This document shows positions 20,873 through 39,652 of a stretch of 46,220 bases of DNA, piece by piece. The notes under the pieces were generated by a model, which was not told the DNA's origin, did no database searches, and worked only from the letters and a program-made list of their open reading frames with translations. Origin of the DNA: Promethearchaeota archaeon (GTDB taxonomy: Archaea; Asgardarchaeota; Lokiarchaeia; Sigyniarchaeales; SOKP01); assembly GCA_019058015.1 (NCBI GenBank), contig JAHLWH010000095.1, forward strand, positions 1-46,220, given 5' to 3'. Positions within the stretch are counted from its first letter, which is position 1, and the number at the start of each line of letters is the position of its first letter. The translations under genes and the position numbers were made by a program.

Positions 20873-20969
20873 GCCTCTGTAGCCTAGTGGTATAGCGTCT
20901 GATATGTATATGTATTAAAGCACAGAAGTCGTAATCAGAAGGTCGAGGGTTCAATTCCCTCCAGAGGCT
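20873..20969 (+). tRNA. tRNA-Thr(CGU) with a 25-nt intron at 32/33 (20904-20928)
   Basis: Acceptor GCCTCTG/CAGAGGC, anticodon stem TCTGA/TCAGA, spliced loop TT-CGT-AA. Full BHB at the junctions. Confidence 0.9.
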
Positions 20970-36412: not shown

Positions 36413-36620
36413 ATGATCCACCTTTCATATCCACACACTCGAGCGTTTGAGAACGGCGGGCTGAAAGGGTCGCCCGGAAGCTTCCCTCTTACACCCCCAG
36501 TCTCACCAACCCTGTCTTTTACAGGAGCTCTCGTCCCCCTTCCACGGTGCACGTCACCGCACCCCGCTCATCATCGATATGATATCTGCGAAGAGGGAAT
36601 GGGAGATTATTTTCTGGTTG

Positions 36621-36652
<32 letters not shown>

Positions 36653-36778
36653 TCTTGGCGCGTGGCTGCCCGGCGATGCCTTGTCAGACAACCGGTAAAC
36701 TAGAGGCGCCGGCCTCATGTTCCTCTCGTACTGGTGAGACCTTACCATCAATCTCCCAACATACCTGTCAGATAGAAT

Positions 36779-36821
<43 letters not shown>

Positions 36822-37454
36822 TTAATGGGCGAACAGCCCCACCCTTGGAGGTTATGTGCGCCTCCAGGATAGGAAGAGCCGACATCGAGGAAGCAAGCCG
36901 CGAGGTCGATAGGGACTCTTACTCGCGACAACTCTGTTACCCCCGGGGTAACTTTTCTATCACCTCAGCTAGCCACAAAAACCTATACTGAGGATCGCTA
37001 GACCAGGCGTTAGCCTCAGGATTCCTCGCTTTGCAGAATCCTGTCAGGCCAGCTTTTGCTCTTATACTCTACAACGGATTTCTGTCCCGTTTGAGCTGAC
37101 CTTTGGATACTCTAGATATCTTTTCTAGAGTGAGCCGCCCCAGCCAAACTGCCCGCCTGCGGATGTTCAACGCATAAAGCGCCGTTAGTGTTTTAAAATA
37201 AAAAAGTCGGTGTTCCATTGTTGCATTCCCACCAACCGGAGTCGATGGTTCGACGCTCCCGACTACACTCTGTATCTTATTCCAAAACACAACAACAGGT
37301 TGCAGTAAAGCTCCACGGGGTCTTCTCGTCCCGACAGGTATCTCTGGACTGTTCTCCAGAGTGTGATTTCATTCGTCAGAAGGCTGGGACAGTGGGGAGA
37401 ACGTTGGACCCTTCATGCACGTCTAAACTTACTAGACAAGGCGTTTGGCTACCT

Positions 37455-37485
37455 TTCCCCTTCCTTAACGAGATCGTTAAGGAAT
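37455..37485 (-). other. 31-nt BHB intron in 23S rRNA at 1927/1928 (E. coli numbering)
   Basis: Interrupts CTCTCTTA|AGGTAGCC. 10-bp inner hairpin, CTCT/GGGG central helix, two 3-nt bulges. Confidence 0.92.
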
Positions 37486-37782
37486 TAAGAGAGTTATAGT
37501 TACTCCCGGCGTTTAGCAGGACTTACTCGCGTTGGACCGCGGATTGATCATACTGCCACTGGCCAGGTTTCAGTTTCTGTAAACACGCTTTCGCGATATC
37601 AGAAACCTATGTTTTTATTAAACAGTCGTCCCCCCCTAGTCACTGCGACTTAAAGATCCCTACACACTAATGCATGCAGAAATCTTCAAGCAAGCCTTAT
37701 CCCAAAGTTACGGCTCTAATTTGCCGATTTCCCTAGCCTCCTTTACTCGAACACGCCTTAGGCTACTCACCTTGGGGCACCT

Positions 37783-37812
37783 ATCGACAGTACTTCGAAT
37801 TTCGTAGTACTA
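37783..37812 (-). other. 30-nt BHB intron in 23S rRNA at about 1617/1618
   Basis: Interrupts CCGACAC|AGGTG. CGAC/GTCG central helix, AGTACT/AGTACT inner helix. Confidence 0.87.
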
Positions 37813-39652
37813 GTGTCGGTTCTGGGTACGGACACGGCGTTCCTTGAATTTTGCCTTTTCATTGAATCCCAGGATCAGCAGAACCCTCCACATTTGGAAG
37901 GCTATTCATGCTTTATGGTGGGTCTCAAATTTACTCTACTCGCCACCATTATACATTTAAATAGAGAGATGTACGACAACTCTACTCCACCTACCTAAAA
38001 CTGTCAGCAAAATTCCGTGCGTTACCGCAAAATGTAGCGCCGTGGTACAGGAATATAAACCTGTTTCTCTTTCGCGCAGAACATTTAAGAATGCACTTAG
38101 GACCGACTAACTCTTCGCTGACGACGCATTGCGAAGAAACCCTTGCCCTTTCGGCGGATGGGATTCTAACCCATCTATGCTATTACTATCGCCAGGATCT
38201 GCACTCCGGAACGGTCCACTGGAAGTCACCCCCCAGCTTCCGCCCGAACCGGACGCTCCCCTACCGGATCACGAATTCTTCTATTCGTGCCCCTGGGTCT
38301 CGGCAGCAGATTTAAGCCCCGTCCATTTTCGGGGCTATTTTTCTCGGCAAATGAGCTGTTACGCACTCGTTAAAGAATGACTGCTTCTATATCCATCTTT
38401 TTGCTGTCTTCGAAAAATAACGCCCTTTAGTTTGACACTTAACCTGCATTTTGGGGCCTTAACCCAGGTCTAGGTTGTTCCCTTCTCGGCGATGACCCTT
38501 ACGGCCACCAACCCGTTTCCCAGTGTCTTCAGCGCCGGCAAATTCGGAGTTTAAGAGAAAAGGGAGGAATTTCTTCCCCTTGCTTTCCAATTAGTGCTCT
38601 ACCTCACCGGCTACCTCGACTGAGACCTGGCTGAGACCAGCTTCGGGGAGAACCAGCTAAACCCAGTCTAGATTAGCCTTTTGCTCCTATTCTCAGCTCA
38701 TGAATACGAATTGCACGTCAGTTATCCTGCAGACCTCCATCACCCTTTCGAATGACTTCATCTTGGCCAAGAATAGATCGACTGGCTTCGGGTTTTACAG
38801 CAGAAACTTTAGGCCCTTTCAGACCATTTTTCTGGATGCATCCCTTAGAAGATTATATAAAATATCCGAAGATTTTTATATAGATCTAATGTGATGATGC
38901 ATTTGCAAAAATATCGGTTTCCCTATGCCTACAGAGGTTATCTCCTTAAGCTCGCTTCTACTATAAACTCCCTGGCCCATGTTTCCAGACGGATGATGCA
39001 ACTCTGGTCCTCTAGTCTCGAATGAACTGTTGCCAGCATATCTTCGACTAGAATCTATCCTTTCGAGCCGCATCCTTAACAAACTATTTGGTTTCAAGCA
39101 CTTTTCACTACCCTTCCGGGTTGCTTTTCATCGTTTGCTCACGCTACTAATTCGCTATCGGTCTTGGAGAATATTTAGATTTGCCAGTTTGTGTCTGGCA
39201 CATTCATACGAGAAAACCATCCCGCACTACTCTGGGTATCCAGTATCAACCTTGTAATTTACGGTTACACGGCTATCACGCTCTATAGCTCTTCATTCCA
39301 GAAGTATTCACCTTCATTACCGAGGTCGTGCTGGACCCGTACTCCACATCTCCCCAACGTTTCCCTTGGGGATTCGGTTTGATCATTTCCGCTTTCGCTC
39401 GCCGTTACTTACGGAATCACTATTGTTTTCTTTTCCTCCACCTACTAAAATGTTTTACTTCGGTGGGTTCCCCACCCCTAACGGAGTTTTCATGGATTAT
39501 TAGGCCATGAAAGGATGTCCCATTCGAGAATCTCAGGATCAGAGTCTACCTGCGACTACCCTGAGCTTATCGCAGCTTGTCACGCTCTTCATCGGTTTCC
39601 AAGCCGAGATATCCACCAAATAGTGTAGGCGTATTGGATAATACTCAGAGGA

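Follow-up and report, generated by a model that had tools for sequence, protein, structure and literature searches.

A candidate 30-nt BHB mini-intron in the 23S rRNA gene of an Asgard archaeon

The 23S rRNA gene of the Promethearchaeota genome analysed here (G000) is interrupted by a 30-nt insert which is probably an archaeal bulge-helix-bulge (BHB) intron; we infer that it is cut by the tRNA-intron endonuclease EndA and that the exons are sealed by RtcB. The first-pass annotation had proposed a BHB intron at this place, and the reading was supported by the exact absence of the insert from a congener, by a compensatory change between exon and intron, by an inner helix that varies in sequence yet remains paired, and by the endonuclease and ligase genes encoded in the genome. 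Asgard archaea are the closest prokaryotic relatives of eukaryotes. Introns have been known in archaeal rRNA since 1985, and the mechanism is therefore not new; any novelty may lie in the site, the length of 30 nt, the Asgard host and the range of sites occupied across the family.

The insert and its predicted BHB structure

The window, that is, the whole stretch of 46,220 nucleotides that was analysed, contains a 23S rRNA gene of 3214 nt, compared with the 2987 positions of the Rfam archaeal LSU covariance model. This gene was the only LSU match in the G000 assembly (3,841,276 bases, 283 contigs, 94.4% complete). Alignment of positions 37650-37960 to the covariance model assigned 31 bases to 1 model position, with CCGACAC on the left and GGUGCC on the right, confirming that the conserved CCGACAC/AGGTG sequence is interrupted. 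The insert is located in a small hairpin loop of the 23S rRNA, CC-GACACA-GG.

Read on the minus strand, C37813 is the last exon base, the insert runs from 37812 to 37783 and A37782 is the first base of the next exon. Both edges are fixed, since neither can be slid by a base. From 5' to 3' the 30 nt comprise the third bulge base (1 nt), an 8-position stem strand, a 7-nt loop, a second 8-position stem strand, the central-helix strand (4 nt) and the first two bases of the other bulge (2 nt). The size is minimal: besides the hairpin there are only four pairing bases and three bulge bases, one at the start and two at the end.

The site had been placed at about 23S position 1617/1618. In an E. coli 23S copy 2907 nt long, counting put the junction between 1618 and 1619. 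The E. coli reference numbering covers 2904 nt, 3 nt below the copy examined, and 1617/1618 is consistent with our count if one extra base of the 2907-nt copy sits upstream. A37782 aligned with E. coli A1618 (1619 in the 2907-nt copy), and the adenine 3' of the junction is one that we take to be m6A1618 in E. coli.

The features of the gene and of the insert were as follows.

36427..39640, minus strand: archaeal LSU (23S) rRNA gene; Rfam RF02540, 2579.4 bits, model positions 1-2987
37783..37812, minus strand: 30-nt insert, candidate BHB mini-intron; 31 nt for 1 model position; missing from 5 aligned relatives
37815..37818, minus strand: central helix, exon strand CGAC; 4/4 pairs with 37785-37788
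37785..37788, minus strand: central helix, intron strand GUCG; GUCG or GUCA in 18/18 variants, matching exon C or U
37812..37814, minus strand: 5' bulge, A37814 C37813 / U37812; predicted cut between C37813 and U37812
37782..37784, minus strand: 3' bulge, A37784 U37783 / A37782; predicted cut between U37783 and A37782
37789..37811, minus strand: inner helix h' and loop; 37811-37804 with 37796-37789, 7-nt loop 37803-37797
37781, minus strand: outer helix, single pair of G37781 with C37819 (outer count = 1)

Each element of the fold that had been described from the sequence was recovered: a perfect CGAC/GTCG central helix (37818-37815 with 37788-37785), the AC/T and AT/A bulges (37814-37812 and 37784-37782) and the AGTACT/AGTACT inner helix. 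To the six contiguous pairs of this last helix, AGUACU/AGUACU in the RNA, an A.A mismatch and a C-G pair could be added, giving 7 pairs over 8 positions. The outer helix was also as annotated, consisting of the pair C37819-G37781 alone, a relaxed motif. With only 1 bp in the outer helix the motif is of the HBh' kind, and the insert lacks the strict hBHBh' form, in which both flanking helices are present. The BHB core itself is complete: a 4-bp central helix, 3-nt bulges on opposite strands and junctions after the second bulge base.

As a rule, EndA cleaves 3' of the second bulge base, and the canonical 37/38 tRNA intron conforms to this. The cuts predicted by this rule matched exactly the insert edges defined by homology.

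Folding of the insert with its flanks (66 nt) gave -16.8 kcal/mol and z = -2.0, and 9 of 200 shuffled sequences folded as well; for the inserts of two relatives the z-scores were -0.8 and -0.8. The BHB was the minimum-energy fold in 6 of the 18 sequence variants described below, in contexts of 55-70 nt, and other pairings won in the remaining 12, frequently that of exon GAACC with a GGUU at the intron start. The folding energy of single sequences is weak evidence for the BHB, and the case beyond chance is comparative.

The first intron bases of many variants, N-GGUU or N-GGUC, can pair with the upstream exon GAACC/GAACUGAC (loci L031, L197, L198, L202, L206, L208, L210-L213 and L066). This pairing competes with the BHB helix and imitates the CC/GG pairs that natively close the mature loop; it may act as a conformational switch or preserve a sign of how the intron arose.

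Presence, absence and covariation among relatives

An LSU match was obtained in 13 of 21 related genomes. In an alignment of eight LSU genes the 30-nt block was present in G000, G004 and G009 and missing in G001, G008, G014, G016 and G020. The insert of G004, a member of the same genus as G000, is also 30 nt long and differs from that of G000 at 10 positions; G009, from another genus, has an insert of different sequence at the site. A further genome of the G000 genus, G002, contains an insert identical to that of G000. In G001, again of the same genus, the junction is uninterrupted and the rRNA is 99.02% identical to that of G000 (3122 of 3153 aligned positions). The only LSU gene found in G004 (10 contigs, 100% complete) contains the insert, so that the interrupted gene must yield working rRNA.

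The distribution of the insert was then determined at higher taxonomic levels by scans with the exact exon flanks, which reach inserts of up to 30-31 nt, while longer introns and divergent flanks escape them. The site was matched in 24 of 135 genomes of the family and in 35 of 154 genomes of the order, 25 of these belonging to the family and 10 to two other families. In a sample of the phylum 85 of 400 genomes were matched, 78 of the 85 without insert; the other 315 gave no match, mostly because the LSU gene was not assembled. BHB-type inserts were present in six genomes, all of one family: G000, G002 and G004 (genus g1), G009 and G036 (g6) and G115 (g2). This corresponds to 6/25 of the site-bearing genomes in the family and to 3/4 in the genus. 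No BHB-type insert within the reach of the scan (up to 31 nt) was seen in the 10 site-bearing genomes of the order's other families. One genome of another family (G316:C83:5323-5365) has a 21-nt insert at the same rRNA position, the 3' end of which, by our reading, is not BHB-paired with the exon.

A scan of metagenomes, using the flanks only and allowing a gap of 15-45 nt, yielded 19 contigs with an insert. Chance bacterial matches to a separate, looser pattern on genome contigs (120 loci, L077-L196) were left out of all counts. Genomes and metagenome contigs together provided 18 distinct variants at the site, with lengths of 29, 30, 31, 33 and 44 nt.

In all 18 variants the central helix has 4/4 pairs and the bulges read AC/N and AN/A. 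One pair of this helix, formed between exon and intron, is C:G in 13 variants and U:A in 5. Since U could pair with G as well, the strict occurrence of U:A is notable; because the variants are related by descent, the U:A class may represent one evolutionary event.

Pairing was quantified in an alignment of all 11 variants of 30 nt, the 7 variants of other lengths being left out. At column 12, on the exon strand of the central helix, the pair is CG in 6/11 and UA in 5/11. Overall 88.8% of the cells were paired, as against 21.0-49.7% when the 3' partners were slid by 1-3 columns, and 6 of the 13 pairs (30 cells) had changed on both sides. For the inner helix the corresponding values were 5 of 8 pairs and 81.8% of the cells paired. 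The observed pairing or covariation score was reached by 0 of 500 shuffles, a count which is not a probability, since the sequences are kin.

The invariant intron columns are those of the central-helix strand, the first base of the 3' bulge and one G-C pair of the inner helix near its base (columns 20/40). These are the parts that an endonuclease would read, and the loop is not among them.

Splicing enzymes, sequencing runs and alternative explanations

The G000 genome encodes two PF01974 (tRNA-intron endonuclease) paralogues, located at C235:869-1471 (minus strand) and on contig C115 (locus L022:1183-1803). The 200-aa EndA matched PDB chains 3p1z_B (1e-34) and 3ajv_B (3e-33), with which its active-site Tyr/His/Lys and a KPR-containing loop aligned without gaps; we take these chains for catalytic subunits of a heterotetrameric crenarchaeal enzyme and the KPR-containing loop for a feature that widens the substrate range. 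The 206-aa paralogue lacks the catalytic His, as expected of a structural subunit. Judged from these alignments, the two proteins probably form an alpha-beta heterotetramer like the crenarchaeal enzymes of broad specificity, which may be able to use the relaxed motif with its 1-bp outer helix. The protein-atlas cluster nearest to this EndA is commonest in Promethearchaeota. RtcB is encoded as well (577.5 bits). Two EndA paralogues fitting an (alpha-beta)2 enzyme occur in 44 of 60 Asgard genomes according to a preprint (10.64898/2026.10.13.758758).

In the proposed route, the CGAC preceding the junction would pair in the precursor with the GUCG near the 3' end of the insert. Each splice site would then lie in a 3-base bulge flanking the 4-bp helix, with the remaining insert bases folded into the closing hairpin. 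EndA would cut both bulges after the second base, and RtcB would join the exons, restoring the universal CCGACAC-AGGUG loop; RtcB would probably also circularise the excised 30-mer.

Contigs from three RNA runs (X15, X17 and X18) and one DNA run (X5) were compared with the window over positions 37300-38100. Over the insert (bin 37786-37812) the depth was zero in each of the three RNA runs and in X5 as well, and the contigs fit the intron-less congener. RNA contigs stopped at 37782 and started at 37813, and in two contigs of X17 a loose end of 9 bases, belonging to the other exon, preceded 37813. In the DNA run a 951-nt contig lacked both the 30-nt insert and a second, 31-nt insert of the same gene (see below), and carried changes at 37915, 37954 and 38007, precisely those that set the intron-less G001 apart from G000 in that stretch. 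G001-type SNPs were also found in the RNA, at 3/3 positions in X17 and 1/3 in X18, X15 having no cover at 37921-38028. Since the DNA of X5 holds the joined form together with the G001 SNPs, and the RNA shares these where covered, the RNA contigs were counted neither for nor against splicing. The presence of the SNPs in salt-marsh DNA and RNA contigs indicates that the intron-less species seems to be the commoner one in those runs.

The insert could also be a micro-expansion segment, retained as an extra hairpin on the loop of the mature 23S rRNA. The lineage does have rRNA insertions elsewhere, of 63-82 nt near 38830-38900 and as large blocks near the 3' end, and Asgard archaea are known for expansion segments (Penev et al. 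2020, PMC7594248), a study in which an intron analysis was performed and known intronic regions were removed. Expansion segments are found in variable, peripheral regions and throughout a lineage, whereas this insert sits in a loop whose flanks are the same or almost the same across the phylum sample (matched in 85/400 genomes) and is optional among species of one genus. Its conservation is limited to the bases that define the BHB, and the same layout is repeated at about 10 other conserved-core sites. Moreover, a retained hairpin needs neither the pairing of its 3' end with the upstream exon nor a G-to-A change answering the exon C-to-U change. We consider retention improbable.

Excision at the BHB with the ends left unjoined would produce a 23S rRNA that is fragmented or linearised from a circular form. 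RNA contigs ending exactly at 37782 and 37813 are what this predicts, and BHB-dependent circularisation and permutation of archaeal 23S rRNA are documented (PMC7758197, PMC12918454). However, short de Bruijn contigs break at such places regardless, and the two X17 contigs do run from 37813 into the other exon for 9 bases, probably coming from the intron-less strain. Element-free congeners would need another maturation route, and RtcB is present in the genome; excision of this kind is, in our view, quite improbable. Least credible, and very improbable indeed, is an assembly artefact or a dead rRNA copy. The division of the assembly into 283 contigs and the splitting of its SSU gene across two contig ends speak for it, but 6 genomes, each assembled separately, and 19 metagenome contigs have the same insert or a variant of it, the remainder of the gene scores as a full LSU, and in the near-complete G004 genome no LSU gene was found besides the interrupted one. 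A spliced BHB intron therefore remains the preferred reading.

Other classes of element were considered and rejected. At 30 nt the insert is too short for the ORF of a homing endonuclease or for the catalytic core of a group I intron, and no Rfam family besides the LSU model matched at the insert. A search of the 3.84-Mb genome with up to 4 edits allowed found neither mini-intron a second time, which argues against a repeated mobile element.

Further mini-introns and relation to known introns

A second candidate mini-intron is located in the same gene.

37455..37485, minus strand: second mini-intron of the gene, 31 nt, CUCUUA/AGGUAGC, near E. coli 1927/1928

Its layout is that of the 30-nt insert, with a central helix CUCU/GGGG (4/4 pairs), a 4-nt loop, an inner helix of about 10-11 bp and an outer helix of 3 bp. 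It folded with -16.7 kcal/mol and z = -3.36, a value equalled by 0 of 200 shuffles. Among the eight aligned LSU genes it occurs in G000 only. Metagenome locus L204 has a near-identical copy, and L202, L211, L205, L068 and L032 have further variants in the same position.

To survey such inserts, LSU loci were aligned to the intron-less G001 gene and all inserts of at least 14 nt were listed (253 records). Retaining those with 12-nt flanks at least 11/12 identical on both sides left 40 distinct inserts; owing to this selection for conserved flanks the set is uninformative on variable regions. In G001 numbering the insert sites are 1826/1828 (the 30-nt site), 1988, 2115, 2123/2124 (near E. coli 1927/1928), 2267, 2642, 2688, 2723/2726 and 2789/2792. 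Relatives carry similar inserts of about 30 nt at about 10 other conserved 23S sites. The length was 29-31 nt in 29 of the 40, with a mode of 30 nt, and 32 to 209 nt in the remainder.

A strict BHB rule, demanding 4/4 central pairs and at least 3 contiguous inner or outer pairs, was passed by 29 of the 40 inserts. Among shuffled inserts 0.4-1.0% passed, and when the real inserts were moved to random LSU positions 1.5-2.8% did. In most of the 11 inserts that failed, the inner helix is mismatched close to its base.

BHB-type inserts of relatives were observed on L007 (G009), L045 (G139), L033-L037, L068 (G157), L010, L031 and L032. They are mostly of 29-32 nt, some at 2789-2792 reaching 106-209 nt, and the LSU gene of G009 has four of them.

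The 40 inserts gave no general signal of an origin by tandem duplication when their first and last 12 intron bases were compared with the adjoining ends of the exons: identities averaged 3.95 and 3.70, and mismatched site pairs gave 3.51 and 3.40. A weak resemblance between the intron start and the start of the 3' exon was seen at the 30-nt site only.

The same layout recurs at many conserved 23S sites, with clean presence or absence between near-identical species. As a tentative suggestion, possible rather than probable, the element at 1617/1618 is one of a lineage-wide group of BHB mini-introns of about 30 nt, devoid of ORFs, that were gained and lost at 10 or more conserved-core 23S sites in this family and its neighbours. 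If this is true, the mini-introns would be the smallest rRNA introns known and an rRNA counterpart to the Asgard burst of tRNA introns, itself unexplained, and natural presence/absence pairs of 99%-identical congeners would allow a direct test of how introns are gained. Mini-inserts disrupt universal-primer and probe sites and split rRNA assemblies; left in by annotation, they would distort rRNA alignments and structure models.

Staphylothermus marinus has two 23S introns, of 54 and 56 nt. BHB introns have long been described in the 23S rRNA of Desulfurococcales and Thermoproteales (PMC3608112; PMC4496867). Those of Desulfurococcus mobilis, Staphylothermus marinus, Pyrobaculum and Aeropyrum resemble the present element in lying in the conserved core, in being bounded by a BHB and in being patchy among close relatives. 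Such crenarchaeal introns are recognised by the tRNA splicing endonuclease via the BHB, a role that is predicted for EndA here; the present case differs in its Asgard host, its length of 30 nt and its lack of an ORF.

The introns of Thermoproteales 16S rRNA are also similar. Jay and Inskeep 2015 (PMC4496867) describe many introns at 13 conserved 16S loci, with conserved BHB cores, variable interiors and a patchy occurrence among relatives, those above ~100 nt having been screened for homing endonucleases. The host RNA is 16S there and 23S here, and the inserts studied here, in contrast, cluster at 29-31 nt (29/40) and have no coding capacity. Many of the longer 16S introns reportedly carry a homing endonuclease.

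The non-canonical tRNA introns of Asgard archaea (Valentin-Alvarado 2024, PMC11291895; preprint 10.64898/2026.10.13.758758) are likewise short, bounded by a BHB and repeatedly gained at many positions, and their splicing has, according to the same sources, not yet been shown in any Asgard cell. Both papers deal with tRNA genes; the word 'rRNA' is absent from the main text of the preprint, and '23S' from PMC11291895. The preprint names as the central open problem how intron sequences arrive; rRNA mini-introns with datable gains and losses are a second, independent data set on this question.

In Pyrococcus furiosus, a helix-98 fragment is excised from circular pre-23S rRNA (PMC7758197), and a short piece is thus removed in maturation there as well. 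In that species the element is a fixed helix, and its removal leaves open ends and a circularly permuted rRNA, whereas the element described here is optional among congeners and interrupts a universal loop that needs to be restored. In the literature accessible as full text, outside the classic site catalogues and supplements, we found neither a BHB intron at LSU 1617/1618 nor rRNA introns of about 30 nt in Asgard archaea.

Larger length differences were also seen in the LSU gene. A block of ~63 nt near window positions 38830-38900 (minus strand) is present in G000, G001 and G004, longer in G008 and G009 and missing from G016, G020 and G014. The region around it is variable, and its behaviour is that of an expansion segment, not of an intron. 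The gene has large variable blocks towards its 3' end as well.

The SSU rRNA gene of G000 is split between two contig ends, C111:40453-41448 and C75:22513-23228, near model positions 824-940. This break in the assembly could be due to strain variation or to another insert.

Intron-bearing tRNA calls number about 15 across the genome, in a list that is noisy. Within the window, an Rfam tRNA match of 97 nt (20873-20969, plus strand) was missed by ARAGORN in default mode; when introns were allowed, ARAGORN reported the same interval as tRNA-Thr(cgt) and placed a 25-nt intron in it, at a position that is non-canonical.
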